Below are positions 17,716-35,284 of a DNA stretch of 43,900 nt, piece after piece. Source of the DNA: Clostridium sp. CAG:448 (GTDB lineage: Bacteria > Bacillota > Clostridia > Oscillospirales > CAG-272). Under the pieces are notes generated by a model that was not told the DNA's origin, did not search any database, and saw nothing but the letters and a program-made list of their open reading frames with translations. Position numbers and translations under genes: made by a program. The stretch's first letter is position 1, and the number at the start of each line of letters is the position of its first letter. The stretch is from assembly GCA_000433415.1 (NCBI GenBank), contig FR890455.1:1-43900 (forward strand), written 5' to 3'.

Positions 17716-17744
17716 AGTATAGCACAACTCCGGCAGAAAAGCAA
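17716..17744 (-). promoter_or_regulatory. Candidate sigma-A promoter of the methyltransferase gene
   Basis: The minus strand reads TTGCTT, a 17-nt spacer, then TGcTATACT. Confidence 0.5.
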
Positions 17745-18630: not shown

Positions 18631-19166
18631 ATCAATTTAGGGCATTTTGCACCCATGAATTGCGATGCAGGCGCCCGTCGTGCACAAACGCCTCTTGAAT
18701 AAGGAGGCGTTTGCGCAAAAGAACCGCCGCGGCAGGTGGCGTCCGGGACCGAGGGACGGCATTTGCAGCGGCGGGTCTTGGCCGAAGCTTTTGCAGCGGC
18801 GTGTCTTGACCGACAATTGCATAGCAATCATGCTGAATGCCGCGGATCGTGACTCCCGGGATGCCCGTTTATCGTGCGGATCGGGAGGAGACGATGGGCT
18901 TTTTACCGGCGCGAGCCGTGTAGAGGTGCGGTCCGGTCGTACGTTGCCGGATACCGTTGCTGCGGTTGCTGCGAAAGCGAGACCGTGCATTGCTTGCCGA
19001 CGGATTGTTTCCTTGTTTCCTTGAGATCGGTTCTGCTCGGAACGGATGGCAGGGGAAGAGGCGATTTGCCGGCGGCGGGCACAGGTATGATTGGCGGCGC
19101 ACAATACCCCAATTGGGTCGGCGGTTTTCCGCGCCGGATCCAAAGAAATGCAGGAGGAAAGGTTTA
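18631..19166 (+). promoter_or_regulatory. Long (about 535 nt) GC-rich non-coding 5' leader with hairpins and short tandem repeats
   Basis: No protein-like ORF exists on either strand. A 10-bp hairpin CAAACGCCTC/GAGGCGTTTG lies at 18685-18714. A 24-nt direct repeat TTTGCAGCGGCG(G/T)GTCTTG(G/A)CCGA occurs at 18762-18785 and 18790-18813. GTTGCTGCG occurs twice (18956-18973) and TTGTTTCC twice (19005-19020). Confidence 0.4.
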
Positions 19167-22100
19167 ATGAAGAAAACGAAATTCCAAAGATTCGCGGCGT
19201 GCCTTCTCGCGCTTACAATGCTTCTGGGATCCGCTCTGGTTTCTGTCAGTGCGGCAACCGGGACATCTGATGCGTCGAGCGGTTCGTCCGTTACGGACAA
19301 GAGTCTGCAGGAAATCCGCGAGTTGCTCAATGCGATTTCGTACAGTGAGTACGTTCTGTCCGACGTATTTACCACGACTGGATACGCAAAGGAGCAGATT
19401 GTCATCGATGTGCTGGCAGATATTGATACGAGCAGAGACGGAAACTGCTACATTGACGATGAAAAGGTCAAAGAGCTGACCGCGGGCGGAAATGCAGATA
19501 AGGTGAATGACTATGCACATAAGTCCACCCTTTACCGTGACGCAGACGGCAATGAGATTGAGAGCCTTTATACGCCGTCCAACGGTTCCGTGTCTTGGAA
19601 GGTGGAACTCAGCGAAAGCGCCAAGTATGCCATCGTGATCGAATATTACGCGGTGACGGGCAAGGCGACGGCTGTGGAACGTGTTTTCAAAATCAATGAT
19701 AAAGTGCCTTTTTCCGAGGCGCGTTACCTGACGCTGAACAAAAACTGGGTGACAGAGCCTGTCCAGTATCAGTTGCGTGACGGCGAAACGGCTGAAAGTG
19801 CGAAAGCGGATTTGGAATCGATCGGTTTGACCGTTACCAAGGATGAGAGCGGAAATCTTTACTGTGCAATTCCGGAGGTTTGGGATGAAGAACTTGTCAA
19901 GGCGTGTGAAGATCGCGGCTTGCGCTTCTTCTTGACTGACGTTACCAATAATGAGATCCGCAGTGCCGCGGTGCAGGCGCCTGTGTGGACAAATTATTAT
20001 CTGCGCGATTCCAGCGGATACTATACAGATAACTTTGTTTTTGCCCTGGAGAAGGGAACCAACATCCTGACCCTGGAAGGCAAGAACGAACCCCTTGCAA
20101 TCAAATCCATTCGCCTGGTTCCGGTGGAAGAAACGCCGACCTATGATGAGTACATCAAGAATCTGGGGAGTGTGAAGAACAATGCCAACAGCACAGTGCG
20201 TCTGGAAGCGGAGTATCCCAATGCCACTTCCTCCAAGACCATTTATCCGACTGAGGACCGTTCCGATGCTGCGAACTCGCCGTCGGATGTTTCCCGCACG
20301 GTGATGAATACGCTGGGTGGTGAAAAATGGCAGACTGCCGGTCAGTATGTCGAGTACAACTTCCGCGTCAGCGGCTCGGGTATGTATGACCTGATTTCCC
20401 ATTTCCGCCAAAATATCCTGGACGGCATGTATGTGTGCCGCAGCCTGGAGATTTACAGCCATAACGTGGAAGAGGGAACTGCCGGCTACTACAACGGTGC
20501 ACCCTTTGAAGAAGCAAAGTCGTTGCGCTACAATTACAGTGCCAACTGGAATGTAACAAAACTGACAGACGGATCCACCGGGTCGGACGGTAAGACCCGC
20601 AACTACCCAATCTACTTTGTGGGAACCGACGATAATAAGGATGCATATTACACCATCCGTTTTGTGGTTACGCTCGGCTCCATGGGTGATATTGTCCGCG
20701 AAGTACAGGAAATTTTGAATTCCGTCAACAATGACTATCTGAACATCCTTCGTCTGACCGGTGCAAACCCCAATACATACAACTCTTACGGATTCTCCCG
20801 CGTCATGCCGGATACCCTGATCGACATGATCGTACAGTCCAGAAGACTGGACAATTCCGAAAACAAGAACAATAAGAATTATCAGCCTGGACTTGCGGAA
20901 CGGTTGACCACCCTGGCAGGACAGAAATCCTCTAACGTTGGTACGCTGCAGCGGATCGCGGATCTGCTCAAGAAGATGGGAACCGACGAAGAAGAAATTC
21001 CCACGAACCTTGAAAACCTCAAGACCTATATCGGGACCCTGGGAACCTTCCTTTCGGACGCACAGACACAGCCGCTGCTTCTTGACTATATCCTGATTCG
21101 TCCTGCGGATTCTGCCGAAAAGATGCCACGCGGCAAGGCGGGATTCTTCCAGGCGATTGCGCACGAAGTCTCCGGCTTCTTCATGAGCTTTGTCCGTGAC
21201 TATAACAGCATGGGTTCCATGGACGAGGATGCGGACAAGAGCATTGAAGTATGGCTGGCATACGGACGTGACCAATCTCAGGTTATCCGTAACCTGATTA
21301 ACAATGACTTTACACCGAATACCGGTGTTGCGGTTGACCTGAAGCTGGTTGCGGCTGCAACTCTTCTGCCTTCCATTTTGTCTGGCTCCGGACCGGATGT
21401 TTATCTGGGGCTGGGACAGGCGGATGTTATCAACTACGCGATTCGTTCTGCACTGATCAATATTGATGACCGTGCGGATTTTGCTGAAGTGCGTGACAAC
21501 TTCAACGATGCAGCAATGCTGGTGCTTGGTATTGAAGATGCAGACCAGATCATGCATTACTACGGGCTGCCTGAAACGCAATCCTTTACCATGATGTTTG
21601 TCCGTGACGACGTGCTTGCAGACCTCGGTCTGGAAGTACCCAAGACATGGGACGATATTCTGGCGGCGGTTCCAGTGCTCCAGTCGCAGAAGATGGAAAT
21701 CGGTCTGACCACGGACTTCCAGATTTTCCTGTATCAGCGCAACGGTGAGCTGTTTGCGGATAACGGTATGAGAATCAACCTGGATTCGGTTGTGGGACTT
21801 TCTTCCTTCGAATATATGTGTAACCTGTTTACGCAGTATTCTTTCCCGTATACCTACAATGCGGCAAACCGTTTCCGTACCGGTGAAATGCCGATCATCA
21901 TCGGTGATTACACCGCTATGTACAACCAACTGAAGGTTTTTGCAACTGAAATCGAAGGCGCATGGGAATTCCTTCCGATGCCCGGTATCAAGCAGGAAGA
22001 CGGCAGTATCAACAATGTGTCGATTTCTTCCATTGCGGCTGTTGTCATGGTGTCCGGCGTTGAGGACAAAGACAGCGCTTGGGAGTATATGAAGTGGTAC

Positions 22101-22871
22101 ACCGGAAAGGATTGCCAGAGCGACTATACCAACGAGATGGTTGCAATCCTTGGTCCTTCCGCAAAGCACCCGACGGCGAATAAGTACGCGCTGGAGGATT
22201 TGCCCTGGACGACCTCGGAGCTGGCACAGGTGCAGGCACAGTTCAACAACCTCGCGGCAGTGCCGAACTATCCCGGTGCTTACATTATCGGTCGTTATAC
22301 CAACTTCGCATTCCTGTCCGCTTATAACGACAAAGCTGACCCTGCCGAATCCATTCTTTCTTACGTGCCGACCATCAACAAGGAAATTACACGTAAGCGG
22401 AACGAATTCAAGCTGGAAACCCTGGAGGCGGGCGAAACGCTTGCAAGCAAGCGTTTGAACCAGGCAACCGGTCTGCTCGATAAGATTGAGAAGAACAGCG
22501 ACTATAAGAGCGATTATGCAGAGGTAATCCGTGAGGCGAAGGCTGCAATCAAAGATCAGAACGAAAACGGTCTGATGATGGCGGCGGAAAAATTGCGCGG
22601 AATTCTGCGTGAACTGGATCCGAATTATCAGTATGTCGAATCTCATGCGAACGACGGTAATACCAATTATAAGAACAGTACTTATTGGAAGAATCTTGAA
22701 TCACTCATGGGCTACGATATGAATGATTTAAGCCTGACAAACAAAGAGAAGAAAAAGCTGAGAAAGTGCTACTACTACGAAGCCTACGATCTGACAGACG
22801 AGATGGCAACGCTTCTGCACTTTGCCGCTGAGTATATGGAAGACGCAGCAGCTGCGCTTTCCACATATTGA
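19167..22871 (+). CDS. Giant secreted ABC substrate-binding protein (family 1 core) with a roughly 690-aa N-terminal extension carrying two CBM-like modules, plus a C-terminal helical tail
   Basis: AGGAGG (19152-19157) precedes the ATG at 19167. Signal peptide MKKTKFQRFAACLLALTMLLGSALVSVSA. CBM-like segments include SWKVELSESAKYAIVIEYY... and RLEAEYPNATS...GEKWQTAGQYVEYNFRVSGSGMYDL. The binding-protein core starts near aa 691 (IEVWLAYGRDQSQVIRNLINNDFTPNTGVAVDLKLV...). The track ORF start at 18957 is an extension. Confidence 0.85.
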   Translation: MKKTKFQRFAACLLALTMLLGSALVSVSAATGTSDASSGSSVTDKSLQEIRELLNAISYSEYVLSDVFTTTGYAKEQIVIDVLADIDTSRDGNCYIDDEKVKELTAGGNADKVNDYAHKSTLYRDADGNEIESLYTPSNGSVSWKVELSESAKYAIVIEYYAVTGKATAVERVFKINDKVPFSEARYLTLNKNWVTEPVQYQLRDGETAESAKADLESIGLTVTKDESGNLYCAIPEVWDEELVKACEDRGLRFFLTDVTNNEIRSAAVQAPVWTNYYLRDSSGYYTDNFVFALEKGTNILTLEGKNEPLAIKSIRLVPVEETPTYDEYIKNLGSVKNNANSTVRLEAEYPNATSSKTIYPTEDRSDAANSPSDVSRTVMNTLGGEKWQTAGQYVEYNFRVSGSGMYDLISHFRQNILDGMYVCRSLEIYSHNVEEGTAGYYNGAPFEEAKSLRYNYSANWNVTKLTDGSTGSDGKTRNYPIYFVGTDDNKDAYYTIRFVVTLGSMGDIVREVQEILNSVNNDYLNILRLTGANPNTYNSYGFSRVMPDTLIDMIVQSRRLDNSENKNNKNYQPGLAERLTTLAGQKSSNVGTLQRIADLLKKMGTDEEEIPTNLENLKTYIGTLGTFLSDAQTQPLLLDYILIRPADSAEKMPRGKAGFFQAIAHEVSGFFMSFVRDYNSMGSMDEDADKSIEVWLAYGRDQSQVIRNLINNDFTPNTGVAVDLKLVAAATLLPSILSGSGPDVYLGLGQADVINYAIRSALINIDDRADFAEVRDNFNDAAMLVLGIEDADQIMHYYGLPETQSFTMMFVRDDVLADLGLEVPKTWDDILAAVPVLQSQKMEIGLTTDFQIFLYQRNGELFADNGMRINLDSVVGLSSFEYMCNLFTQYSFPYTYNAANRFRTGEMPIIIGDYTAMYNQLKVFATEIEGAWEFLPMPGIKQEDGSINNVSISSIAAVVMVSGVEDKDSAWEYMKWYTGKDCQSDYTNEMVAILGPSAKHPTANKYALEDLPWTTSELAQVQAQFNNLAAVPNYPGAYIIGRYTNFAFLSAYNDKADPAESILSYVPTINKEITRKRNEFKLETLEAGETLASKRLNQATGLLDKIEKNSDYKSDYAEVIREAKAAIKDQNENGLMMAAEKLRGILRELDPNYQYVESHANDGNTNYKNSTYWKNLESLMGYDMNDLSLTNKEKKKLRKCYYYEAYDLTDEMATLLHFAAEYMEDAAAALSTY

Positions 22872-22909
22872 CCGTCTTCCGATTATAAATCCACAAAGGA
22901 GAAACGCAT

Positions 22910-23857
22910 ATGTCAGAAAGAACGGCAACTAAAAAAGCTGTTTCGCGGAAAGATATGACCAAGGCGCAGTGGACATGGAAAGAGATGAAGCGCAACTGGG
23001 TTGCCTATGTAATGGTTGCCCCGTACATGATTCTCTTTACGCTGTTTACCGTTGTGCCGGTGGTGCTTTCCATCTTCATCAGCTTTACGGACTTCAATAT
23101 GCTGGAATGGCCGAACTTCGTTTTTCTGGACAACTACATCACGTTGTTCTTTGATGACGATATTTTCCTCATTGCAGTCAAAAACACTTTCATTTTCGCG
23201 GTGATTGTCGGACCTGCCTCCTACCTGATGTCTTACATGGTGGCGTGGTTCATCAATGAATTGCCGCCTAAGATCCGGGCGGTTGTAACCCTGATCTTCT
23301 ACGCGCCTTCCATTTCCGGTCAGGTTTACTTGATTTGGGGTACCTTGTTCTCGTCCGACTCCTATGGTTGGGTCAACGCAACATTGCTCAAACTTGGACT
23401 GATTGACAAGGAGATTTTGTTCTTCCAGGATGAAAAATACGTAATGCCTCTGTGTATTATCGTTTCGCTTTGGACCTCGTTGGGTACTTCCTTCCTGGCG
23501 TTTATCGCAGGTTTGCAGGGGGTTGACCGCTCGCTTTACGAAGCGGGTGCGGTGGACGGTGTCAAGAACCGTTGGCAGGAACTTTGGTATATTACGTTGC
23601 CGTCTATGAAGCCGCAGTTGATGTTTGGTGCGGTGATGTCCATTACCGGTTCGTTTGGATTTGGCGGTATCGTTACCGCGCTTGCCGGTTTCCCGTCCGT
23701 CAACTACTGTGCACATACCATCATGCACCATCTGGAAGACTACGGCGGACAGCGATATGAAATCGGTTATTCTTCTACCATCGCGGTCATTCTGTTTGCC
23801 ATTATGATGGGCGCGAACATGTTGGTGAAGAAAATACTCTCGAAGGTAGGTACGTAA
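22910..23857 (+). CDS. Carbohydrate ABC transporter permease (MalF/LplB-like), pair 1
   Basis: Six-TM MetI-like pattern with EAA loop LYEAGAVDGVKNRWQELWYITLPSMKP. RBS AAAGGAG. Confidence 0.9.
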   Translation: MSERTATKKAVSRKDMTKAQWTWKEMKRNWVAYVMVAPYMILFTLFTVVPVVLSIFISFTDFNMLEWPNFVFLDNYITLFFDDDIFLIAVKNTFIFAVIVGPASYLMSYMVAWFINELPPKIRAVVTLIFYAPSISGQVYLIWGTLFSSDSYGWVNATLLKLGLIDKEILFFQDEKYVMPLCIIVSLWTSLGTSFLAFIAGLQGVDRSLYEAGAVDGVKNRWQELWYITLPSMKPQLMFGAVMSITGSFGFGGIVTALAGFPSVNYCAHTIMHHLEDYGGQRYEIGYSSTIAVILFAIMMGANMLVKKILSKVGT

Positions 23858-23860
23858 GTT

Positions 23861-24733
23861 ATGGCGAAATTAAGAACAAGAAAACATAAAGTCGTACTTG
23901 CCCGTTCCGCGGGGGGCGATGCATTTATCACTGTAATTTTGGTCATCCTGGGCGCATTTATGTTCCTGCCGATGCTGTATGTGTTCATGCAGGCGCTGAA
24001 GCCGTTGGATGAGTTGTGGATGTACCCGCCACGCTTCTACGTGATGAGCCCGACCTTATCCAACTTTACGGATTTGTTCCAGCTCATGAACACTTCCTGG
24101 GTTCCGTTTTCCCGTTACGTTTTCAATACCGTTCTGACGTCCGTTGCCGGTACTTTCGGACACCTGTTCCTTGCATCTCTTGCGGCATACTGCATGGCAA
24201 AGATCAAGTTTCCCGGGCGCAACGCCATGTTCTGGACGGTACAGACCTCACTGATGTTCAACTCCACCGTTACGACCATTACCTCCTTCATTCTGATGTC
24301 GGCTTTGGGTTGGTTGGATACCTACTGGGCGCTGATCGTTCCTGCGTGGTGTAGTTCCTTGGGACTTTATCTGATGAAGCAGTTCATGGATACCAACATC
24401 ACCGATGCGGTTTTGGAGTCCGCGCGGCTTGACGGCGCGAGAGAATTGCGCATTTATTGGACCATTGCGATGCCCATGGTTAAGCCTGCATGGCTGACCC
24501 TGATCATTTACTGCTTCCAGAACCTGTGGAATGCGGGAGCTTCTATGTACATTTACTCCGAGCAGTTGAAATCCTTCAACTATGCCATCGGTCAGATTAC
24601 CGCGGGCGGTATCAAGCGTGCCGGTGCGTCGGCAGCCGCTTCTGTGGTCATGATGATGGTGCCGATCATTGTGTTTGTTATTTCACAGTCCAACATCATT
24701 GAGACCATGGGCTCCAGTGGTATGAAGGACTGA
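23861..24733 (+). CDS. Carbohydrate ABC transporter permease (MalG/LplC-like), pair 1
   Basis: EAA loop VLESARLDGARELRIYWTIAMPMVKP. It starts 3 nt after the upstream stop. Confidence 0.9.
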   Translation: MAKLRTRKHKVVLARSAGGDAFITVILVILGAFMFLPMLYVFMQALKPLDELWMYPPRFYVMSPTLSNFTDLFQLMNTSWVPFSRYVFNTVLTSVAGTFGHLFLASLAAYCMAKIKFPGRNAMFWTVQTSLMFNSTVTTITSFILMSALGWLDTYWALIVPAWCSSLGLYLMKQFMDTNITDAVLESARLDGARELRIYWTIAMPMVKPAWLTLIIYCFQNLWNAGASMYIYSEQLKSFNYAIGQITAGGIKRAGASAAASVVMMMVPIIVFVISQSNIIETMGSSGMKD

Positions 24734-24749
24734 TAAGGGAGGGAACGAA

Positions 24750-26915
24750 ATGAAAAAACTGACCGCAATATTTTGTGTCGTCTTCGTTGCGCTCTTGCTC
24801 CTGACGGCGTTTCCGCTCCGTGCCAGTGCCGGCTCGGCATATCAGACTTATACATACTCCATTGACGGCTATGCCCTGTATTCGCCGGATGCGTATACGG
24901 CTGTAACCACTGTGGACTCGGAGTATATGGGATTGCTGGATAAGTCATTGTTCGCAAATCCTGTTGCGATTGATAATCCCGGCGATATGGTTACGGATGA
25001 CGACGGCAATGTTTACATCGCCGATACCGGTAATAACCGGATCGTTGTTTTGGACCGTTACTATAAGGTGCGTTTTGTAATTACCGAATTCCGGAACGAT
25101 CAGGGCGTTGCGGATGCACTGACGGCGCCGCAGGGTGTGTTCGTCACCGACGAAAACATTTGGGTTTGCGACTCAGGTGCCAACCGGATCGTGGCATTCG
25201 ACCGGGACGGTAACTTTGACCGCCTTGTCGAGGAACCGGAAAGTGAATTGTTTGAATCCGATTCCGTTTATAAGCCGGTTGCGATGGCAGTCGACCAATA
25301 CGGCAGACTGTATGTCGTTTCTTCTACGACTTATCAGGGAATCATTGTCATGACCAATGACGGTGAGTTTAACGGTTTTATCGGTACACAGGCAGTGGCG
25401 CTTTCCGCTTGGGAAATCCTTTGGCGTCGTTTCCAAACCGACGCGCAGAAGGAATATGCCGATGAAGTTGTCGCAACCGAGTTCAATAACATTACGATCA
25501 ACAAAGACGGTTTCATTTATGTAACCACCTCTTCCATTAAGGATTCCTCTGTAGAGAGTGCAATCAAGGGAAAAGATAAGAAGGGTACATACATGCCGGT
25601 CAAGATGCTGAATGCCAACGGCGATGAAATCATGCGCCGGAACGGCTTCTGGGCTCCTGCCGGAGAGATTGACTATGCTACGGAATCCACTGCGGAAATC
25701 CGCGGCGTATCCACAATCATTGACGTTGCTGTCGGTGAAGAAGGCACGTGGTCCATCATTGACGAAAAGAGAAACCGTGTTTATACCTACGATTTTGACG
25801 GAAACCTGCTTTACGCTTTCGGCGACAGCGGCACCATGTTGGGCGGTCTTGCCAGTGTGGAGGCAATCACGTATCAGGGCGATACCATGCTGATACTGGA
25901 TAAGACCAACGACAACATTACGGTGTTCAACCGTACCGAGTACGGTGATATTCTGATTCAGGCATTGGCGGCAGAAAACACACAGGATTACGATCTTGCC
26001 ATCAACCTGTGGACGGAAGTTCTGAAGCGTAACAACAACTTCGATGCGGCATACGTCGGTATCGGAGATGCGATGTACCGGAACGGACAGTATCAGGAAT
26101 CGCTTGCCTACTATGAGGCTGCGTATGAAACGACCGGCTGGTCCAAGTCCTATAAGGAAATCCGTACAGAGTGGATGTCAACCTACTTCTTGCTGTTCGT
26201 TGTCATCATTGTTGCCGTCATTGTTGGTGTGGTTCTCTTGTTCAAGACAATGGGAAAGATCAACAAGAAAGCAACTCACAACGGCAGAGCCCGCAAAACC
26301 TACGGACAGGAAGTTGCGTATGCGTTCCACGTTATCGCACATCCGTTTGACGGTTTTTGGGATCTGAAGCATGAGCACAGAGGTTCTGTGCGCGGTGCAC
26401 TGACCATTATTGCCGTTACCGTTCTTGTGTTCTTCTATCAGGCAATCGGTTCCGGTTATCTGGTCAATCCGTATGGTGGTTACACTACGATTTTCACGCA
26501 GTTGCTTGCTGTCCTGGTTCCTCTGTTCCTGTTCGTTGTGGCAAACTGGTGTCTGACCACCTTGTTTGACGGCGAAGGTAGCTTTAAGGATGTGTTCATC
26601 GCGGCAGGATACAGCCTGACACCGATCCCGCTGTTGGTTCTTCCTGCGACCATCTACTCCAACTTTGCAATCAGCACCGAGGTGGATATCATTTCCTTTG
26701 TGGGAACCTTGGCGTTTATCTGGATGGGAATTCTCCTGTTCTTCGGTACGCAGGTTACGCATGACTACGGTATCGGCGGAAATGTCCTTGCCATTCTGGG
26801 AACCGCTGTGGGTATGATCTTTATCATGTTCTTTGCAATTCTGTTTTCCACGCTTGTCGCAAAGCTGGTCAGCCTTGTGACCAACATTGTGGTGGAGTTG
26901 CAGTACAGAATGTAA
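24750..26915 (+). CDS. Membrane protein with a signal peptide, a six-bladed NHL-repeat propeller, a TPR-like segment, one TM helix and a C-terminal Yip1-like multi-TM domain
   Basis: NHL repeats include PGDMVTDDDGNVYIADTGNNRIVVLD and PQGVFVTDENIWVCDSGANRIVAFD. TPR-like segment AYVGIGDAMYRNGQYQESLAYYEAAYE. TM helix at aa 477-498. Yip1-like region HPFDGFWDL...FDGEGSFKDVFIAAGYSLTPIPLL. RBS GGGAGGG. Confidence 0.85.
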   Translation: MKKLTAIFCVVFVALLLLTAFPLRASAGSAYQTYTYSIDGYALYSPDAYTAVTTVDSEYMGLLDKSLFANPVAIDNPGDMVTDDDGNVYIADTGNNRIVVLDRYYKVRFVITEFRNDQGVADALTAPQGVFVTDENIWVCDSGANRIVAFDRDGNFDRLVEEPESELFESDSVYKPVAMAVDQYGRLYVVSSTTYQGIIVMTNDGEFNGFIGTQAVALSAWEILWRRFQTDAQKEYADEVVATEFNNITINKDGFIYVTTSSIKDSSVESAIKGKDKKGTYMPVKMLNANGDEIMRRNGFWAPAGEIDYATESTAEIRGVSTIIDVAVGEEGTWSIIDEKRNRVYTYDFDGNLLYAFGDSGTMLGGLASVEAITYQGDTMLILDKTNDNITVFNRTEYGDILIQALAAENTQDYDLAINLWTEVLKRNNNFDAAYVGIGDAMYRNGQYQESLAYYEAAYETTGWSKSYKEIRTEWMSTYFLLFVVIIVAVIVGVVLLFKTMGKINKKATHNGRARKTYGQEVAYAFHVIAHPFDGFWDLKHEHRGSVRGALTIIAVTVLVFFYQAIGSGYLVNPYGGYTTIFTQLLAVLVPLFLFVVANWCLTTLFDGEGSFKDVFIAAGYSLTPIPLLVLPATIYSNFAISTEVDIISFVGTLAFIWMGILLFFGTQVTHDYGIGGNVLAILGTAVGMIFIMFFAILFSTLVAKLVSLVTNIVVELQYRM

Positions 26916-26936
26916 CTTAGAGGAGAGGAGAAAAAA

Positions 26937-29900
26937 ATGAAATCAGGTTACAGAATAATTTCAATGTTCTTGACTCTTTTGTTACTGTTCGGCGCACTGG
27001 AGTGTCTGGTGATTACGACGTATGCGGATGAGGAAACGACAACGGACGGCGGAACCACCGGCGGAGACGAGGATACGGTTACAACGGTTGACTATACCGT
27101 TACTCCCTATGTTTCCGAAGCAGACAAACTGGCAACCATGACGCATTATCCGCATGCGGATAAAAAGGTAAAGAGCGAAAACGGTAAGACCTATAGCTAT
27201 CAGCTTTACGTGGATGAATATTCCGGTGAGGTTGCGGAGGTCTACTGCGACGAGAATGGGAACATTATCGATACGCTGTTTACCAACCCGTACGATGTAG
27301 GTGTGTCCACCGCGTCCACCTCCATCAAACAGCAGATCCTGTCGCAGATCACCGTAAAATATACGGATAACGATAACGACAAGTACTTCTACAGCTATGA
27401 GCAGGCTGCAATGCGCAACCAGATCAAGGTGAAGAAGATCAAAAACGGTATCCGCGTGGAATATACCATCGGACGTGAGGAAGCACGTTTGCTGCTCCCC
27501 AGACTGATTACCAATGAGCGTTTTGAAACGATGATTCTGGCGCCGATGCGTGAGGCACTGGGCGAGAATTCCTTCATGTACAAGAAATTCACTGCATACT
27601 ATCTGGAAAAGAATCTGGATAAGATTACTTCCCAGCGTGCAAGAGAAGAAATGATCGCAGTGTTTCCGATCGTGGAGAAGTACGCCGTTTGGGTCTTTGA
27701 CCCGACTGCATCCGACGCCGAGAAGAACCTTTGTGAGGAATTGATCAAGGCGAACTGCCCGGATTATTCCTACGAGGAATTGGACACCGACCATGAAATG
27801 ACGCAGTATCAGGGTGAAGAAGATAATCCACCGCTGTTTAAGATGGCGTTGGAGTATACGCTGGATGCCAACGGTATGACTGTTCGTTTGCCTGCAAACG
27901 GTATCCGGTTCAATGAGTCCCTGTATCAGTTGACCTATGTGGAGGTTCTTCCTTACATGGGAGCGGGCAATAACCTGTATAACGGGTATACGATGTACCC
28001 GGACGGTTCAGGCGCGCTGTTCGCATTTGCCGATCCGTCTCTGAAAACCAAAATTTCGGTTACAGGTAAGGTTTACGGATCCGACTACGCTTACCATACC
28101 ATTTCCGGTACCTATCAGCAGGCGATCCGCTATCCGGTGTACGGTATTCAGGAGGATACGACCTATGTGAACCTGGAGCAGGAGGATGGTACAAGTACCA
28201 TTATTTCCGGTTCTGTGGTGAAGAAAATGGAAGACATGACAACCGTTCCAGATGCGTTGCGCGCGTATAAGCAGCTTTTGAACGCAAGTGCCAATGCAAC
28301 GGGAGATTCGCAGGTCACACGGACTGATATTACCAAGAGCCGCGCATTCCTCGCCATCATTGAAGAAGGAGATGCTTTGGCATCAATCTCTACATACACG
28401 GACGCAACCGAGAGCGAATATAGCGCAATGCGGATGCAGTTCAATCCCCGCCCGAAGGACTCCTACAACATTCAGGATTCCATCTCGGTTGGTTCCAACT
28501 CTACTTGGACCGTGGTCAGTAACCGAAAGTATGTCGGAAACTACAAGATCCGTTATGTCCTGTGTACAGATGAGAAAACCGCCAAGGCGGAGAATCTGGA
28601 TAAGTACTATGACGCAAGCTGGTTTGGCATGGCAGTCGCGTACCGGGATTACCTGGAGCGCGAAGGTGCTCTGACCCGTTTGACCGCGGAGGATATTGAA
28701 GACGATATTCCGCTGTACATCGAATCGTTCGGTACGCTGGAAACGACCGAGAAAATCCTGTCCGTCCCGGTCAATGTAATGACCCCTCTGACGACCTTTG
28801 AGAATGTCAAAACCATGTATGACGAATTGAGCAAAGCCGGTATCAAGAATATCAATTTCAAGCTGACCGGTTTTGCAAATGGCGGTATGTACTCCAATGT
28901 GCCGTACGATCTGAAGTTTGAGAATTCGGTAGGCGGCAACAAGGGATTCCAGGAACTCTTGGATTACGCAAAAGAAGTATCCGAGCAGACCGGAAAGCAC
29001 CTGGGCATTTATCCTGATTTTGATTTTGCATACGTTGTGAATGACACATTGTTTGATGCCACCGTGCTCAAACTGCATGCGTCAAAGACCATTGACGACC
29101 GTTATGCAAGTAAAAAATACTATGTTGCAACCAAGCAGAAGTATCAGGGCAGATACGAAATGGTGCTCTCGCCGGCGTATATGAGCCACTTCTACAAGCA
29201 CTTGATTGCAAATTATCTGGGTAATTTCAACAATGTAACCGGTATTTCCGTTGGTTCGCTTGGTTCCGCTCTGAACTCTGACTTTGATGAGGATGAGCCT
29301 TACAACCGCGAGGACGCAAAGGAATTCACAATCAGCGCCTTTGAGTATCTGAATAAGGCGGGACTGAGTGTGATGACCGAAGGCGGCAACTCCTATACCT
29401 GGAAATATGCGGATCATATCCTGGGAATTTCCCTGGATTCCAGCCGTTATAACAAGGCAAGTTGCTCCATTCCGTTTGTCGGTGTCATTCTGCACGGTTA
29501 CAAACAGTTCTCCGACGATCCGCTCAACATGGAGGGCGATATCCAGTACGCCATGTTGAAGATTCTGGAAAACGGAGCTTCTCCGTATTTCACACTTTCC
29601 TATCAGAACACACAGAAGCTCAAGGACTTCACCTATCTGAGCAACTACTATTCCGTGCGTTATGATATCTGGAAAGAGGATATGATTGACAAGTACAACG
29701 AGCTGAACGCTGTGTTGCGGGATGTACAGCTCAATCTGATCACCAAGCACGAATTTATCAACGGTACCCGTGTACCTGACGTAGATGAATTGGAATCGGA
29801 TATCGACCAGGCGATGAGCGAATATCGCGAAAGAGAACTCGCCGAAGTTGAGGAAGCGGAAAAGCTGCTCCTGCAGAAGGTGGGTAATGCCCGTAAGAAG

Positions 29901-31670
29901 ATCAGAGAGGTAGAAGATGCCCTCGCAAAGGCAGTGACAGCGACAGGTTCCGCAAGAAACAATGCGCAGGTCAACAAGTTTACGGTCGATGACAAGATGG
30001 CAAATTACAAGTCTGCCATTCTTGAGTATGTCGATGCGGTTGCAAAGGGTTGGGATAAACTGGCGGATTCCACGGATGAGACAGACGCGGCAAATTATCA
30101 GGCGTATGTCAACACCACAAAATCCGTTACCAAGGAACGCTACCGTCTGATCGTCGCTTTGGCACAGGTCGGAAACTATGCGAAGATTGCTGAGGATTCC
30201 ATGAATTCCGTTATTGAGCTTTTGGATGTCAGCCGTCAGGCAGTCGAGGATGTCAAGAACGGTGTCAAGGATATTGAGGACGAAGCAGTTAAACAGACAA
30301 TCATCAGTGATTCCGAGCGCCTGTACAATCTGTCTGCACTGTACCTGAACGGTCTTGCAAACGGAGAAAAGGGCTACTATGAGGTGAAGGCACGCTACCA
30401 GGATGCATACTTTGATCAGTTGCTTGCCGACGGCACCAGACTTTATGATCTGAATGCGGAGTATGAAAAGGTTGTGCAGTATATGACTGCGGTTGCCGCA
30501 TTGGATAGTCTTCTGAGCGCAAAGAAGAATTTGACTGCTGCTCTTGCTGCAATTGAAAAGGCAACGGCTTTGGTGGAAACCCGCCGGAAGGCAGTTGACG
30601 AGGCGGCAGATGATGCAGCCAAAGAGAAAGCGGAAGCCGCACTGCAGACTGCAAAAGAAGATCTTGCAACGCAGGAAAGCAACCGCGACGCACTGAATGT
30701 GCTGATTGAAAAGCTGATTGCGGCCGGTACCGAGGCGGGTTACGATCTGGATGCCATCGAAAAGGCAGAAGACCTGAAGATCAAAGCAGACGTACCGTAT
30801 GTGTACACCACTTCAAACAGTGAAGCTCTGCGTCAGTATGTTGTATACAGCTTGGGCAGTAAACTGAATGCCGAGTTGGGTATTGCAGGCGAGATCAACG
30901 CTTATGCCGAAAAATATGTACTTGCAGAGGCTTACATTGCCGCAAAGAAAGCTTACGATACGGCTGTTAAGGATGAGGCAAAGGCAAAGCAGGCATATGA
31001 GAAGGATCAGACCGATGCACTGAAGGCTGCTTACGAAGCTGCACAGAAGGTAAAGGCTGATTGCAAGGCGGTGATGGATGCATACCTTGCAAAGGATGCG
31101 GCGCTTGAAAAGGTCACCAATGTAAATCAGTACGTAACCGTAGGCGACTATGTGAAGTTTGTCTATGAACAGAGCAACCTCTCCTATGCGTTGATCAGTG
31201 CACGAAACAAACTCAAAAAGGAAATCGCCGATCAGCTCGGAACTGACTTCACAGAGGAATCCCTTAATATTCCTGCCAAGGTGCAGGCAACCGACTTCTT
31301 CAGCTTTACTTATTGCATCACGGAAAATAAGGAATTGGCAGCCAAGGCGTTTGAAGAAAGCGTACAGGGCGTACTTGATTTCTGTTCCAGTGTGGAACTC
31401 CCTGCCGAGTACACGGTTACACGCAAGGACATCACTGACAGAATGTCAAACAACAATTCCGGTACAAAAGAAGAAGAAACCAAGACTGACTTTGATAAGT
31501 ACGCGACCAGCGGCAATAAGATTGTTGCCGTGACGTACGGTAATGATGATGGCAGTGTCAAGAAGGTCATCATTATCAACTACAACAACTTCGCGGTAAA
31601 GGTAGAGTACAATGGCAAGCTGTACACCATTGCGAAATTCGGTTATGAGATTATTCTCGGCAATCATTGA
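26937..31670 (+). CDS. 1577-aa secreted or membrane-anchored protein. It has a large N-terminal domain of unknown function (possibly the family annotated DUF5696, glycosidase-like), a roughly 490-aa alpha-helical insertion, and a short beta-rich C-terminus.
   Basis: RBS GAGGAGAGGAG. N-terminal hydrophobic signal or anchor IISMFLTLLLLFGAL. Central segments read PLYIESFGTLE..., LTGFANGGMY, GIYPDFDFAYV and VMTEGGNSYTW...IPFVGVILHGY. An A/E/K/D-rich helical region spans aa ~948-1435. The C-terminus reads KIVAVTYGNDDGSVKKVIIINYNNFAVKVEYNGKLYTI. Confidence 0.85.
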   Translation: MKSGYRIISMFLTLLLLFGALECLVITTYADEETTTDGGTTGGDEDTVTTVDYTVTPYVSEADKLATMTHYPHADKKVKSENGKTYSYQLYVDEYSGEVAEVYCDENGNIIDTLFTNPYDVGVSTASTSIKQQILSQITVKYTDNDNDKYFYSYEQAAMRNQIKVKKIKNGIRVEYTIGREEARLLLPRLITNERFETMILAPMREALGENSFMYKKFTAYYLEKNLDKITSQRAREEMIAVFPIVEKYAVWVFDPTASDAEKNLCEELIKANCPDYSYEELDTDHEMTQYQGEEDNPPLFKMALEYTLDANGMTVRLPANGIRFNESLYQLTYVEVLPYMGAGNNLYNGYTMYPDGSGALFAFADPSLKTKISVTGKVYGSDYAYHTISGTYQQAIRYPVYGIQEDTTYVNLEQEDGTSTIISGSVVKKMEDMTTVPDALRAYKQLLNASANATGDSQVTRTDITKSRAFLAIIEEGDALASISTYTDATESEYSAMRMQFNPRPKDSYNIQDSISVGSNSTWTVVSNRKYVGNYKIRYVLCTDEKTAKAENLDKYYDASWFGMAVAYRDYLEREGALTRLTAEDIEDDIPLYIESFGTLETTEKILSVPVNVMTPLTTFENVKTMYDELSKAGIKNINFKLTGFANGGMYSNVPYDLKFENSVGGNKGFQELLDYAKEVSEQTGKHLGIYPDFDFAYVVNDTLFDATVLKLHASKTIDDRYASKKYYVATKQKYQGRYEMVLSPAYMSHFYKHLIANYLGNFNNVTGISVGSLGSALNSDFDEDEPYNREDAKEFTISAFEYLNKAGLSVMTEGGNSYTWKYADHILGISLDSSRYNKASCSIPFVGVILHGYKQFSDDPLNMEGDIQYAMLKILENGASPYFTLSYQNTQKLKDFTYLSNYYSVRYDIWKEDMIDKYNELNAVLRDVQLNLITKHEFINGTRVPDVDELESDIDQAMSEYRERELAEVEEAEKLLLQKVGNARKKIREVEDALAKAVTATGSARNNAQVNKFTVDDKMANYKSAILEYVDAVAKGWDKLADSTDETDAANYQAYVNTTKSVTKERYRLIVALAQVGNYAKIAEDSMNSVIELLDVSRQAVEDVKNGVKDIEDEAVKQTIISDSERLYNLSALYLNGLANGEKGYYEVKARYQDAYFDQLLADGTRLYDLNAEYEKVVQYMTAVAALDSLLSAKKNLTAALAAIEKATALVETRRKAVDEAADDAAKEKAEAALQTAKEDLATQESNRDALNVLIEKLIAAGTEAGYDLDAIEKAEDLKIKADVPYVYTTSNSEALRQYVVYSLGSKLNAELGIAGEINAYAEKYVLAEAYIAAKKAYDTAVKDEAKAKQAYEKDQTDALKAAYEAAQKVKADCKAVMDAYLAKDAALEKVTNVNQYVTVGDYVKFVYEQSNLSYALISARNKLKKEIADQLGTDFTEESLNIPAKVQATDFFSFTYCITENKELAAKAFEESVQGVLDFCSSVELPAEYTVTRKDITDRMSNNNSGTKEEETKTDFDKYATSGNKIVAVTYGNDDGSVKKVIIINYNNFAVKVEYNGKLYTIAKFGYEIILGNH

Positions 31671-31684
31671 TGGGAGGTGTGAAG

Positions 31685-32674
31685 ATGACAAACCAAGCAA
31701 AAGCACAAACAACAGTGACTCCCGGCAAGACGGCACCGAAAAAGCGTAAGATTGCCTCTTTGGACAAACGAAAAGCACGGATGGGGTGGGTATTCGTCCT
31801 GCCCTTCGTGATCGGATTTGTCTGCGTTTATCTGCCGATTATCTTTGAGTCCATTCAACTCAGTTTTTACAAAATTTCCATTGTGGGTGCCGGCGGCGGC
31901 TTTGAAAAAGAGTTCGTTGGCTGGGACAACTACAGTTGGGCACTCGGAACCGACCCGGACTTCGTCCGCACGTTGGTGGAGGGTCTGAAGGAACTGGCAT
32001 TCGATATTCCCGCGATCATCATTTTCTCCCTGTTCATGGCAGTGTTGCTGAACCAGAAAATGATCGGACGTGCGGCATTTCGTGCAATCTTCTTCATCCC
32101 GGTTATTCTTTCCACCGGTATCATGGAGTCCATTGACGCACAGAACATTCTGTCCAGTTACATGGATTCTACCTCCGGTATCGACGACGGTTCGGGAACC
32201 AGCGCGGCGACAGAAATCGTTTCGGCGATCGATATTGAGCGGCTGTTCTCAAACATGAAGGTCGGAGAAGGCATGGTTGAATACGTTGTAAACATGATCA
32301 ACGATATTTACGACATTGTTAACCGTTCCGGCGTACAGATGCTGATCTTCCTTGCCGGCTTGCAGTCTATCTCCCCTGCCATTTATGAGGCGTGCAAGAT
32401 TGACGGCGCAACCTCGTGGGAAACCTTCTGGAAGATTACATTCCCGATGATCAGCCCGATGATTCTTGTAAACGGTATTTATACCATTATCGACTCCTTT
32501 ACGACCGATTCCAATACAGTTATGACCTACATTGCGTCTGTGTATAAACAGAACGACGGTGACGTCCGCAGTTCTGCAATGGCGTGGATGTACTTCCTGA
32601 TTGTCATTGCCATCATCGCCGTAGTCGGAGCAATCTTCTCTGCATTTGTCTTCTATCAGAGAAGGGAATCTTAA
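31685..32674 (+). CDS. Carbohydrate ABC transporter permease (MalF-like), pair 2
   Basis: GGGAGG (31672-31677) precedes the ATG at 31685. EAA loop IYEACKIDGATSWETFWKITFPMISP. Confidence 0.9.
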   Translation: MTNQAKAQTTVTPGKTAPKKRKIASLDKRKARMGWVFVLPFVIGFVCVYLPIIFESIQLSFYKISIVGAGGGFEKEFVGWDNYSWALGTDPDFVRTLVEGLKELAFDIPAIIIFSLFMAVLLNQKMIGRAAFRAIFFIPVILSTGIMESIDAQNILSSYMDSTSGIDDGSGTSAATEIVSAIDIERLFSNMKVGEGMVEYVVNMINDIYDIVNRSGVQMLIFLAGLQSISPAIYEACKIDGATSWETFWKITFPMISPMILVNGIYTIIDSFTTDSNTVMTYIASVYKQNDGDVRSSAMAWMYFLIVIAIIAVVGAIFSAFVFYQRRES

Positions 32675-32692
32675 AGAAAGGAGGAGCAGAAA

Positions 32693-33802
32693 ATGGAGAA
32701 AACAAATCAAGCGGTTGCCGCAAACGAAAGCGGCAGACCGATTATTAAAGAGTCAAAGCGTTCCATCAAGATGGACTTTGACCGCACACCGCTGAAGGAT
32801 CGGCTGAAGGCGAAATTCCTGAACATGTATTTTGTAACCAGAGTGATCTGGTACATCTTCCGCCTGGTTCTTCTGATCGGTATTTCCTATATCGTTCTGT
32901 ATCCCTTCTTTACAAAGATTGCCGGTTCCTTTATGGCACCGGAGGACTTCGTAGATGTAACGGTTCGTTTGATCCCGAAGCATTGGACGTTGGATATTTA
33001 CAAGGCGATTATCACAGAGCTGGATTATTTTGAGGCATTTCTGAATTCCTTCATTTTGTCCGGTATGGTCGCTTTGATGCAGACGTTTATCTGTTCTTTG
33101 ATCGGCTACGGCTTGGCAAAGTTCCGTTTCAAGGGAAATAAGCTGGTATTCATGCTCGTAATCCTGACCATGGTGGTCCCGCACCAGACCCTGCAGCTTT
33201 CCATGTTCATGAATTTCCGCTTCTTCGATGTGTTCGGCATTCTGTCCTTCCTGAGCGGAGGTGTGACAACCGGTATTGAGGGGTTGGATGGCATCCTCTC
33301 CAAGATCCATTTGCTGAATTTCCCGAACGGGTTGAATCTGACAAAGACTTATGCACCGTTGATTATTCTGTCCATGACCGGACTTGCATTTAAGAACGGT
33401 TTGTACGTCTTCATGATGCGTCAGTTCTTTACGGGAATTCCGGAATCTTTGGAGGAATCGGCATATATCGACGGATCGGGAACGTTCCGTACCTTCCTGA
33501 CCATCATTCTGCCGATGTCTATTCCGATGATGATTACGATTTTCCTGTTCGCTTTCTGTTGGCAGTGGACCGACGACTTCTACACGTCTTTGTTCTACAT
33601 CAACCAGCAGGTGAAATTGTTGACCGGCATTGTGGAGATCCCGCCGAGTCTGAAGTTGGATTATGCGGGCAAGTCGTTGTATGAAGCGGCGATTCGGAAT
33701 ACCTGCGGTATTATGATTATTCTGCCTTTGATTATCCTCTATATCTTCTGCCAGAACTTCCTGGTACAGGGTATTGAGCGTTCGGGTATCACCGGCGAAT
33801 AA
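32693..33802 (+). CDS. Carbohydrate ABC transporter permease (MalG-like, enlarged external loops), pair 2
   Basis: RBS AGGAGGAG. EAA loop LEESAYIDGSGTFRTFLTIILPMSIP. Confidence 0.9.
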   Translation: MEKTNQAVAANESGRPIIKESKRSIKMDFDRTPLKDRLKAKFLNMYFVTRVIWYIFRLVLLIGISYIVLYPFFTKIAGSFMAPEDFVDVTVRLIPKHWTLDIYKAIITELDYFEAFLNSFILSGMVALMQTFICSLIGYGLAKFRFKGNKLVFMLVILTMVVPHQTLQLSMFMNFRFFDVFGILSFLSGGVTTGIEGLDGILSKIHLLNFPNGLNLTKTYAPLIILSMTGLAFKNGLYVFMMRQFFTGIPESLEESAYIDGSGTFRTFLTIILPMSIPMMITIFLFAFCWQWTDDFYTSLFYINQQVKLLTGIVEIPPSLKLDYAGKSLYEAAIRNTCGIMIILPLIILYIFCQNFLVQGIERSGITGE

Positions 33803-33934: not shown

Positions 33935-35284
33935 ATGGATAAAAAGAACAAAGCAACGCGTTACCGGCAACCGGACCGGATCCGACATCCGGAAAAAATC
34001 CGACATTTTGACTTTTCCGTCAAACCAAAGAAACCCGGGCCTCTATTTTCGGTTGCCAAGCATATCCTGGCATGGCCGGATTTGCGGCGACGACATGCAA
34101 AGATTGACAAAGTCAATATGGAATCTCTGGAGGGCAAGCCGTATCTGCTCTTGGTGACGCATTCCTATTTCTGTGATTTTGCCGTGATGATGAAGGTGAC
34201 ACATCCGCACCCCGTGATCAATGTCATGACGCTGGAAGGATTCAATACCTATTCCGCACCATTGATGCGCGCATTGGGGGTCATCGGAAAGCGCAAATTT
34301 GTGCAGGATTTTCATTTGATACGCAATATGAAGTATACGGTGGAGAAACTGAAATGCATTTTTTGTCTGTTTCCGGAGGCACGTTATTCACTGGACGGAT
34401 GCGGTTCCTACATCCCGGAGTCTACGGCAAGCCTTGTTAAGTTGTTGGGGGTTCCGGTCGTGGTACTGCGGATTCACGGGAATTTTGTCACGTGTCCGCA
34501 ATGGAACAAGATTGATAAGGGAACTTATATTGAGGGACGTGCGGAGCCGATTATCACTGCACAGGAAACGCAAACACTTTCCAAAGAGGAGATTTTTACC
34601 CGCATTCGCACCAATTTTACTTATGATGATTTCCGCTGGCAGGCAGAGAACCGCATCCGGATTGACCATCCGCGACGGGCAGAGGGGTTACATTGCCTTT
34701 TGTATAAATGCCCGCATTGCGGGAAGGAATACGAAACCGATTCTGCCGGGACGGAGCTTTGGTGCCGTGCCTGCGGAAAACGTTGGGAGATGGATGTATA
34801 CGGGCAATTGCACGCAAAAGAGGGGGAAACGGAATATCCGCATATTCCCGATTGGTCTGCGTGGGAACGCGATTGTGTGCGGCATGAGATCCTTTCCGGC
34901 ACTTACCGGTTTGAAAGCGAGGCACGCATAGAAACGCTGCCCGGTTGGAAAAAGTTTTACAAACACGGAAGCGGCAGACTGATACAGGATATGACAGGTA
35001 CCTATGTGATTTGCGACAATCTTTACGGAAAGGGAGAATTTACGCTCCATAAAAAGCCGCTGGAGTTGGACAGTGTGCATATCGAGTACGACTATCTTGG
35101 CAGAGGGGATGCGGTTGACATTTCTGTCCCCGATGACAGCTTCTGGTGCTATATAAGGGCCCGTGACGCTATTACGAAACTTTCATTTGCAACCGAAGAA
35201 CTATACCAGAATGCCCGCGCCCGGCGACAGGTTCCGGTGCGGGAGAGCACGCTCTGTCCGGCGGAAACGCCGTCCGCCAAGTAG
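33935..35284 (+). CDS. PlsC/LPLAT-family acyltransferase with a C-terminal zinc-ribbon-containing domain
   Basis: HX4D motif THSYFCD, FPEARYS (FPEGTR-like motif III), and CPHCGKEY...WCRACGKRW. Confidence 0.75.
   Translation: MDKKNKATRYRQPDRIRHPEKIRHFDFSVKPKKPGPLFSVAKHILAWPDLRRRHAKIDKVNMESLEGKPYLLLVTHSYFCDFAVMMKVTHPHPVINVMTLEGFNTYSAPLMRALGVIGKRKFVQDFHLIRNMKYTVEKLKCIFCLFPEARYSLDGCGSYIPESTASLVKLLGVPVVVLRIHGNFVTCPQWNKIDKGTYIEGRAEPIITAQETQTLSKEEIFTRIRTNFTYDDFRWQAENRIRIDHPRRAEGLHCLLYKCPHCGKEYETDSAGTELWCRACGKRWEMDVYGQLHAKEGETEYPHIPDWSAWERDCVRHEILSGTYRFESEARIETLPGWKKFYKHGSGRLIQDMTGTYVICDNLYGKGEFTLHKKPLELDSVHIEYDYLGRGDAVDISVPDDSFWCYIRARDAITKLSFATEELYQNARARRQVPVRESTLCPAETPSAK

Follow-up and report, generated by a model that had tools for sequence, protein, structure and literature searches.

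A long-form DUF5696 protein of Clostridium sp. CAG:448 with a predicted GH129-type fold and a probable helical insertion in its C-terminal hairpin

The DUF5696 gene and the parts of its product

The window in this study was the whole stretch of 43,900 nucleotides analyzed from Clostridium sp. CAG:448 (assembly GCA_000433415.1, contig FR890455.1, positions 1 to 43,900), and the gene under study (26937-31670) encodes a protein of 1577 amino acids (aa) that belongs to the Pfam family DUF5696. The protein very probably has the fold of glycoside hydrolase family 129 (GH129), with a block of helices inserted in a beta-hairpin of its C-terminal sandwich, and its gene is the fifth of seven in a cassette that would serve uptake. 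An earlier model-made reading of the DNA letters and translations (hereafter, the sequence-only reading) had described a secreted protein whose glycosidase-like core was split by a helical insertion. The open reading frame (ORF) that it gave was matched exactly, including the ATG start. A strong ribosome-binding site (RBS), GAGGAGAGGAG, lies 7 nt 5' of ATG 26937, and the gene starts 22 nt past the stop codon of the gene before it. Behind its own TGA come GGGAGGTG, which is an RBS, and then the ATG of the next gene at 31685. The gene's own RBS and the tight spacing on both sides indicated that it belongs to a tightly packed operon. Family members with the block are called long forms here, and those with a short turn in its place are called short forms. 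The parts of the gene are listed below; confidence values are the predicted local distance difference test (pLDDT) of two models described in the next section.

26937..31670, + strand: whole gene, long-form DUF5696/GH129-like protein of 1577 aa (ORF with ATG start; stop TGA 31668-31670)
26937..27026, + strand: putative signal peptide, aa 1-30, no lipobox (direct reading of the translation: MKSGYR, a 20-residue hydrophobic stretch, then TYA/DEE)
27027..27086, + strand: acidic Thr/Gly-rich linker, aa 31-50 (sequence; low confidence at the first residues of the model of aa 41-1000)
27087..28703, + strand: N-terminal beta-rich domain with helical subdomains, aa 51-589 (secondary structure and pLDDT of the model of aa 41-1000; Foldseek alignment; conservation)
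28149..28328, + strand: 60-aa long-form-specific segment, aa 405-464 (at least 80% of the short forms are gapped there in the alignment)
28704..29726, + strand: (beta/alpha)8-like barrel, aa ~590-930 (alternating strands and helices in the model; GH129 as top fold match; conservation over 50 long and 99 short forms)
29280..29282, + strand: codon of D782, candidate catalytic nucleophile (loop after barrel strand beta4; conservation)
29727..29768, + strand: first strand of the C-terminal beta-sandwich, LITKHEFINGT, to aa 944 (end point of the Pfam match, profile position 577)
29769..31517, + strand: very probable intradomain insertion, aa 945-1527, 583 aa (in-silico deletion; hhalign of the tail; DSSP)
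29781..30263, + strand: proximal pair of long helices, H1 (aa 949-1036) and H2 (aa 1048-1109) (pLDDT to about 90; periodicity; residual block similarity)
31449..31517, + strand: low-complexity, low-confidence return linker, aa 1505-1527 (pLDDT about 37 in the model of aa 378-1577, its residues 1131-1140)
31518..31667, + strand: C-terminal tail, aa 1528-1577, five beta-strands (pLDDT ~92; hhalign; Pfam positions 578-603; collinear with the ZgGH129 C-terminal domain)

The N-terminus reads as a Sec signal peptide of a secreted protein, as had been proposed, and in the long-form consensus the signal peptide ends in V-x-A/AE. The five motifs quoted in the sequence-only reading were all found in the translation, inside the barrel region. 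The segment of aa 405-464 was predicted to form a strand-strand-helix-helix unit in the N-terminal domain and was missing from all 99 aligned short forms.

Family, fold and the C-terminal hairpin

The sequence-only reading had suspected DUF5696, and a search of Pfam returned this family (PF18952) as the single unambiguous match, with an E-value of 3.4e-128 and 429.2 bits against a gathering threshold of 25.6 bits. The native sequence matched in two stretches, of which the best (aa 468-942) covered profile positions 133-577 of 612. No NCBIfam model matched the protein, Pfam gave no GH101 match for it, and a single-sequence search of the PDB returned no relevant or GH129 chain. An AlphaFold2 model of aa 41-1000, built from an alignment of 77 long and short family members, had a mean pLDDT of 87.5 and a predicted template modelling score (pTM) of 0.83. 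When this model was searched against the PDB with Foldseek, GH129 structures were the best matches (E 8e-21 to 2e-17; template modelling score (TM) on the target 0.62-0.71), with an alignment of about 900 columns. The top structures were those of DagB from Zobellia (5opq and 8rzk; E 8e-21 to 1e-19, TM on target 0.62), and GH101, GH31, GH36, GH97 and GH13 ranked after GH129. Thus, the distant (beta/alpha)8 glycoside hydrolase-like core of the sequence-only reading was borne out at the level of the fold.

In a search of the family profile against the PDB, GH129 chains only were found, namely DagB (E = 3.6e-4) and NagBb, the alpha-N-acetylgalactosaminidase of Bifidobacterium bifidum (E = 0.018-0.046). 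These matches were collinear partial segments, limited to the N-terminus, to strands beta1-beta3 with the region that precedes the barrel, and to the hairpin at the C-terminus. Moreover, a metagenomic fragment 81% identical to NagBb reached 57.2 bits against Pfam DUF5696, where the cut-off is 25.6 bits, and NagBb-like fragments matched both PF12905 and PF18952. The domain order of GH129 is an N-terminal beta-sandwich, a (beta/alpha)8 barrel and a C-terminal Ig-like sandwich (PMC5698469), and the secondary structure of the model follows this order, with aa 51-589 as the predicted equivalent of the N-terminal sandwich. Taken together, the Foldseek ranking, the family-profile matches and the score of the NagBb-like fragment pointed to DUF5696 as a remote branch of the GH129/GH101 superfamily. 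The assignment of the protein to DUF5696 and to a GH129-type fold is therefore held with high confidence, and the sequence comparisons indicate a similarity to characterized GH129 enzymes at the superfamily level rather than the family level. Pfam still lists DUF5696 as being of unknown function, and no mention of DUF5696, PF18952 or the gene names of the cassette was found in literature searches. The link between DUF5696 and GH129 appears to be unreported in the searchable literature; the GH129/GH101 fold itself is already known.

Among the characterized relatives, NagBb (PDB 5WZN, 5WZP, 5WZQ and 5WZR) has the same three-domain fold (Foldseek E 5e-19 to 2e-17; TM on target 0.68-0.71) and a weak but specific profile match over the pre-barrel region and strands beta1-beta3 (E = 0.018), but is only about 10-15% identical and has a chain of about 640 aa. 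DagB, a GH129-like 3,6-anhydro-D-galactosidase, was the best match in both structure (E = 8e-21) and sequence, the latter through three collinear segments, and its domain order, as described in PMC5698469, is shared by DUF5696. The third segment is the C-terminal hairpin, in which HEYLSADykVQRSRFSSGTEVIANL of DagB is aligned to the pattern HE..L, turn, V.V.Y..G...NY. However, DagB is a protein of 693 aa whose hairpin is contiguous and carries no helical insertion, and it is a marine Bacteroidetes enzyme from a carrageenan-utilization locus. GH101 (SpGH101, PDB 5A59; Pfam Glyco_hydro_101) has a related barrel (Foldseek E = 8.5e-11) but a low TM of 0.31-0.34 and other accessory domains. The NagBb catalytic domain and that of GH101 have been described as similar (review PMC8106489).

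The position of the helical block was established by comparison with short forms. Two of these come from annotated plasmids of cultured bacteria, that of Butyrivibrio fibrisolvens (WP_073386913.1, 839 aa) and that of Paenibacillus cellulosilyticus (WP_110042929.1, 757 aa), and a search seeded with the Butyrivibrio protein gave at least 120 further short forms of 741-903 aa, in keeping with the 850-900 aa roughly expected for family members. The short forms belong to the same Pfam family end to end, lie in the same cassette and share the same invariant residues, but their cores are 22-28% identical to that of the window protein, and they have a hairpin turn of ~7 residues instead of the block. 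They end in '...SHELLSEDLVKVTYDNGTRIYVNYSDSAITVDGVTVEARSFI', and the window protein reads '...TKHEFINGT', then about 580 aa, then KIVAVTYGNDDGSVKKVIIINYNNFAVKVEYNGKLYTIAKFGYEII. H938, in the first strand of the sandwich, is conserved family-wide, and the turn between this conserved His and the V.V.Y strand was 7 residues long in 70 of 82 matched short forms and about 590 in the window protein. The short-form hairpin consensus was aligned to the contiguous DagB hairpin given above.

Neither the block alone nor the tail alone had any Pfam match, and a tail hidden Markov model (HMM) compared with the two short forms alone was not significant, so that a profile-profile comparison and a deletion test were needed. 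In the former, the long-form tail profile was aligned to the extreme short-form C-terminus (Butyrivibrio residues 802-838 of 839; hhalign P = 3.6e-4). In short forms the match to the Pfam profile runs from 3 to 612 of 612, and in the window protein it stops at 577. When aa 945-1527 were removed in silico, the end of the Pfam match moved from 576 to 603 of 612 and the score rose from 430.3 to 445.0 bits (+14.7), which indicated that the DUF5696 domain is complete but split. It is thus very likely that the block was inserted into a tight beta-hairpin, between strands one and two of the C-terminal sandwich, and the beta-rich end of the protein (five predicted strands) is the normal C-terminal sandwich of the family, as the sequence-only reading had supposed. 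Since the block replaces a hairpin turn of ~7 residues, its two ends must be neighbors on the sandwich surface.

In a model of aa 378-1577 (mean pLDDT 75.8, pTM 0.57), the insertion was 77% helix and 2% strand by DSSP, with helices spanning aa 949-1504. The A/E/K/D/L-rich helical region first placed at aa 948-1435 (~490 aa) was therefore real and larger than described. Its composition was A17 K10 E9 L9 D8, with 3 prolines in 546 aa. H1 has 88 residues and H2 has 62, the pLDDT reached about 90 over aa 1007-1137, and about a dozen shorter helices of mixed confidence follow H2. The heptad-like stretches reported earlier were recovered in these two helices, with periods of 3.60 for H1 and 3.45 for H2 (each p = 0.0045 against shuffles), and not in the others; a windowed fast Fourier transform across the block showed weak periodicity. 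Because the periodicity is limited to H1 and H2, amphipathic helical hairpins or bundles fit better than one long continuous coiled coil. Of the whole block, the H1/H2 region was predicted best and has diverged least; where different block types still resemble one another, the resemblance is mostly anchored at the block start. From their lengths in the model, H1 and H2 probably form an antiparallel helical hairpin of roughly 9-13 nm, and an elongated shape of the whole block is moderately favored. Searches of the block against the PDB and viral fold libraries gave no significant analogue, the matches being low-TM tape-measure-like or designed helical proteins only. A HMMER search of 1.84 billion representative proteins with the block gave 3 matches; two of them were long-form DUF5696 proteins, and the third was a fragment that is identical to the C-terminus of the window protein.

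A species-level scan with one genome per species found 476 loci with close relatives of the protein, and the detailed locus results in this study are those of the best 80. All of these were from uncultured Clostridia, Eubacteriales or Oscillospiraceae, mostly from the gut of sheep, goat, deer, yak and horse, with one copy per locus of 1211-2043 aa. The nearest database proteins, at least 120 in number and 1204-2023 aa long, had a conserved N-terminal region, a core 54-81% identical and a non-conserved middle, and the conserved tail followed the block in 118 of 120 of them and in about 76 of the 80 genome loci. Judged from these sequences, the block is standard in a large long-form subfamily and absent from the rest of DUF5696, and only its sequence is lineage-specific. 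The sequence-only reading, which had called the insertion lineage-specific, was thus right about the sequence and wrong about its presence, for the block was standard in all of the ~200 close homologues examined; the helical region proved to be a standard part at the level of the subfamily only, and not of the family.

Across 153 measurable homologues the block was 237-989 aa long, with a constant composition (A13 E10 L9 D8 K7 T7 Y7, P 1.5%). No internal repeats were seen among them, and the length classes were not explained by repeats. At least 15 mutually unrelated BLAST types of block were found, the type of the window having three members. The block was 87-99% alignable where the cores were at least 65% identical and was undetectable below 60% core identity; at 81% core identity, block identity was only 48%. 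A relative 99% identical (run SRR22974109) encodes the same 1577-aa protein in an independent assembly, with mostly synonymous differences. Against this relative, the ratio of nonsynonymous to synonymous polymorphism (pN/pS) was 0.11 for the block and 0.02 for the core, which indicated that the block is translated and constrained, about five-fold more relaxed than the core. Swapping of blocks as cassettes was rejected, because block similarity falls smoothly with core divergence and close cores are never found with unrelated blocks. Diversifying selection on the block was also rejected on its pN/pS of 0.11. As far as these sequences tell, the history of the block is one of rapid vertical divergence under purifying selection.

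The seven-gene cassette and the candidate active site

The DUF5696 gene lies in a seven-gene cassette (window 18957-33802), in which a large solute-binding protein (SBP), two ATP-binding cassette (ABC) permeases, an NHL-TPR-Yip1 protein, the DUF5696 protein and two more ABC permeases are encoded in this order. The same order was found in essentially every one of the 80 loci long enough to show it. The other genes of the cassette are as follows.

18957..22871, + strand: gene 1, large SBP (match to PDB 5ysb; homology to a Butyrivibrio SBP)
22910..24733, + strand: genes 2-3, ABC permease pair, UgpA/MalF-like and UgpE/MalG-like (family matches; locus comparison)
24750..26915, + strand: gene 4, protein with a signal peptide, an NHL beta-propeller, TPR and a Yip1 membrane domain (Pfam Yip1, NHL and TPR)
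31685..33802, + strand: genes 6-7, second ABC permease pair (the first starts at ATG 31685 after GGGAGGTG)

The genes are closely spaced, each with its own RBS, and all four permeases are UgpA/E- and MalF/G-like. The SBP has a family-1 sugar-binding domain (5ysb, E = 1.9e-10) and is 30% identical to the Butyrivibrio SBP over the whole length; it was present in 69 of the 80 loci, and the contigs of the remaining loci end before reaching its position. The NHL-TPR-Yip1 gene was kept in 77 of 81 sources (the 80 loci and the window). Moreover, the plasmids of Butyrivibrio fibrisolvens and Paenibacillus cellulosilyticus carry the same cassette order with short-form enzymes, and in Paenibacillus a UgpC-type ATPase lies upstream. 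No operon comparable to the cassette was found reported for NagBb in the literature examined, and the invariant seven-gene cassette appears to be unreported in the searchable literature.

Some details of these neighbors were observed in addition. The ORF start of the SBP, TTG 18957, is likely too far upstream, since a typical signal peptide (MKKTKFQRFAACLLALTMLL...) first appears at M71 (nt 19167) and the Butyrivibrio protein is matched only from aa 87 on. At its other end, the SBP carries a helical-looking, A/L/E/D/K-rich extension of ~150 aa (aa 1154-1304; window 22416-22868, + strand). Such extensions were 96-154 aa long in 28 long-form loci, with a composition like that of the DUF5696 block, and were lacking in the Butyrivibrio and Paenibacillus orthologues. 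The length of the extension was not significantly correlated with that of the block (Spearman 0.30, p = 0.095). The extension could be a partner of the DUF5696 block. The NHL-TPR-Yip1 protein (721 aa) is encoded by a single gene in the window (24750-26915, + strand) and in Paenibacillus, and in Butyrivibrio fibrisolvens the NHL-repeat and YIP1-family proteins are two overlapping genes.

Conservation was computed over 50 long and 99 short forms; identity between the two groups is about 27%. Residues 85-100% conserved in long and short forms alike were D285, D356 (in PDGSG), D383 and E476 in the N-terminal domain and D782, R791, N818, H853, N864, E878 and K896 in the barrel. D782 was found in 100% of the long and 99% of the short forms, and D782 and E878 were both conserved at 99-100%; the latter, near strand beta8, is the invariant Glu. 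In GH129, the nucleophile is an Asp after strand beta4, D435 of NagBb being equivalent to D486 of DagB (PMC5698469), and the catalytic pair of NagBb, as cited in that paper, is D435/E478 with E478 as the acid/base. D782, in the loop after beta4, is likely the best nucleophile candidate and would correspond to D435/D486, and E878, D356, D383, D285, R791 and H853 are likely candidates for substrate-binding or acid/base residues. D285, on a helix of the N-terminal domain, may recall D202 of DagB, which reaches the active site of the partner in the dimer. No alignment of NagBb D435/E478 to the DUF5696 protein was obtained, and any equivalence of the catalytic candidates of DagB (D486, E517 and E531) to DUF5696 residues is putative. 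The statement of the sequence-only reading that catalytic residues were not assignable by eye therefore still applies, as no mapping onto GH129 was obtained.

The long forms have invariant D826, D834 and E866 (in NMEGD) at aa ~826-866 (window ~29400-29540, + strand), and the short forms have in the same barrel region a conserved Asp three residues before a PF(Y) motif and an NM(A/S)DD motif. Such acidic differences in the barrel, as read from the alignment, suggest a different specificity or a different position of the acid/base.

Proposed role, rival explanations and neighboring genes

The favored reading as a whole, to which a probability of about 0.6 was given, is that of a secreted GH129-type glycosidase of an import operon with the helical arm as an appendage. 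In this reading, the DUF5696 protein would be an extracellular retaining alpha-glycosidase composed of the N-terminal sandwich, the barrel and the small C-terminal sandwich; it would trim an alpha-linked glycan, and the adjacent SBP and CUT1-type permeases would import the products. The enzyme, the SBP, the two permease pairs and the NHL-TPR-Yip1 protein would constitute a self-contained, vertically inherited uptake operon. The block would fold back on itself, with the H1/H2 hairpin first and further helical hairpins or bundles after it, as a structural appendage of low constraint that keeps its helicity and position while its sequence and length drift. At the cell surface it most plausibly acts as a spacer or as an arm for oligomerization or docking, and not in catalysis; any one particular function of the arm is unlikely to be the right one. 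Taken by itself, alpha-glycosidase activity of the protein is predicted with moderate confidence.

Several results weigh against this reading. No catalytic residue could be mapped onto GH129 by sequence methods; a sub-profile of strands beta4-beta8 searched against the PDB gave chance matches only (phycocyanin and CFAP69) and no GH129, and homologues sought with the NagBb fragment as the seed were all fragments frameshifted before D435. No conserved Glu was found ~30-45 residues past D782, the acid/base position of GH129/GH101, and E815 there is variable. At several positions in the barrel, acidic residues differ between long and short forms, which together with the lack of a Glu at the acid/base position leaves room for an inactive enzyme or another mechanism. 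No recurrent CAZyme was found among the flanks of the cassette in long-form loci, which consist of housekeeping genes and give no hint of the substrate. Furthermore, the analyses run here revealed no function or binding partner of the block; eight other helices were individually without significant periodicity against shuffles, and how the helices are arranged overall is uncertain at a pTM of 0.57, with a pLDDT of 45-65 at aa ~1150-1210, ~1260-1330 and ~1400-1450.

The same results lead to a rival explanation, in which the protein has the GH129 fold but no catalytic activity and serves an ABC import complex as a glycan-binding or scaffold subunit, the block being its main functional part as a structural arm. 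No acid/base equivalent was found and no sequence similarity to GH129 was detectable over beta4-beta8, the Asp three residues before PF(Y) that is conserved in the short forms is lost in the long forms, the cassette lies amid housekeeping genes and not in a CAZyme cluster, and the family stands as function unknown in Pfam and unmentioned in the literature searched; all of this would fit a subunit that is no enzyme. However, 11 acidic or polar residues are 85-100% conserved at about 27% identity, as is typical of a maintained active site, and the core, with its pN/pS of 0.02, is under very strong purifying selection. DagB, moreover, shares only the nucleophile with NagBb and lacks the acid/base of NagBb, yet is active (PMC5698469). 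A dead scaffold is therefore considered unlikely. Similarly doubtful is an extension of the favored reading in which the enzyme, the giant SBP, the NHL-TPR-Yip1 protein and the two permease pairs form one surface complex that couples cleavage to import, with the arm docking or spacing the enzyme. Such a complex, hitherto undescribed, may be a Gram-positive (monoderm Firmicutes) counterpart of the Sus-type 'utilisomes', and if it exists, how far from the membrane or cell wall the enzyme works would be set by the length of the arm (240-990 aa). The SBP of long-form lineages has itself acquired a helical extension of 100-150 aa at its C-terminus.

A further rival concerns the block alone, which could be a surface hypervariable region under diversifying selection by phage or host immunity, like coiled-coil surface antigens, so that its variability would be adaptive. 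The protein is secreted, at least 15 block types cannot be related by BLAST among the 153 homologues, the block finds only 3 proteins among 1.84 billion representatives, and it is 48% identical in a pair with 81% identical cores, as this explanation would have it. The pN/pS of the block in the closest pair (0.11) is nevertheless far below 1, the similarity of blocks decays monotonically with core divergence without swapping or mosaicism, and no internal repeats or variation-generating elements were seen, so that an adaptive origin of the variability is held to be quite improbable. Finally, the unusual length of the ORF and the lack of block homologues outside these proteins might suggest a mis-assembly, or a DUF5696 gene fused to an unrelated coiled-coil gene. 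This was effectively refuted by the conserved tail, which completes the domain after the block in the same frame, by the core-block-tail order, which recurs in 118 of the 120 database proteins and in about 76 of the 80 independent assemblies, and by the independent assembly with the same 1577-aa protein at 99% identity and mostly synonymous differences.

For the favored reading of a secreted glycosidase with a helical appendage, the significance is twofold. DUF5696 is a sizeable family without an assigned function, and the GH129/GH101 fold together with the import operon gives it a directly testable one; if the enzyme is active, its specificity would be new, or it would found a new CAZy family or subfamily, and it would bear on how glycans are broken down in the rumen and hindgut. 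In addition, an all-helical arm of 240-990 residues in place of a 7-residue beta-turn is an unusual architecture, which stays at one site over long evolutionary time while its sequence drifts past recognition, and the long-form series offers a natural set for studying the evolution and surface roles of long helical appendages. A subfamily-wide, hypervariable helical arm of 240-990 aa grown from a beta-turn appears to be unreported in the searchable literature.

Among the genes next to the cassette, a gene for a protein with PUA and S-adenosylmethionine (SAM) methyltransferase domains, RlmI-like (16446-17744, - strand), lies upstream and occupies the same position in at least 10 other long-form loci. 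This recurrence indicated that the cassette sits in a conserved core-genome neighborhood. On the 3' side, a gene for a 449-aa protein with a weak TFIIB-type zinc-ribbon match (33935-35284, + strand) is followed by that for a 1015-aa GH84 beta-N-acetylglucosaminidase with a GH20b domain and two F5/8 type C domains (35350-38397, + strand). This pair is found 3' of the cassette only in this species and in the 99% identical relative, and not in the other 80 loci.

Farther upstream, an Opp-type operon showed unusual members. Its family-5 solute-binding protein is unusually long, with 769 aa (5921-8230, + strand). Its OppC-like ABC permease (647 aa; 9428-11371, + strand) contains an RCC1-like beta-propeller at aa ~107-379, which is inserted between the permease domain and the N-terminal transmembrane segment (OppC_N) and presumably faces the outside of the cell. 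In its OppF-like ATPase (530 aa; 12371-13963, + strand), the ABC_tran match is split into two stretches, which implies an insertion.

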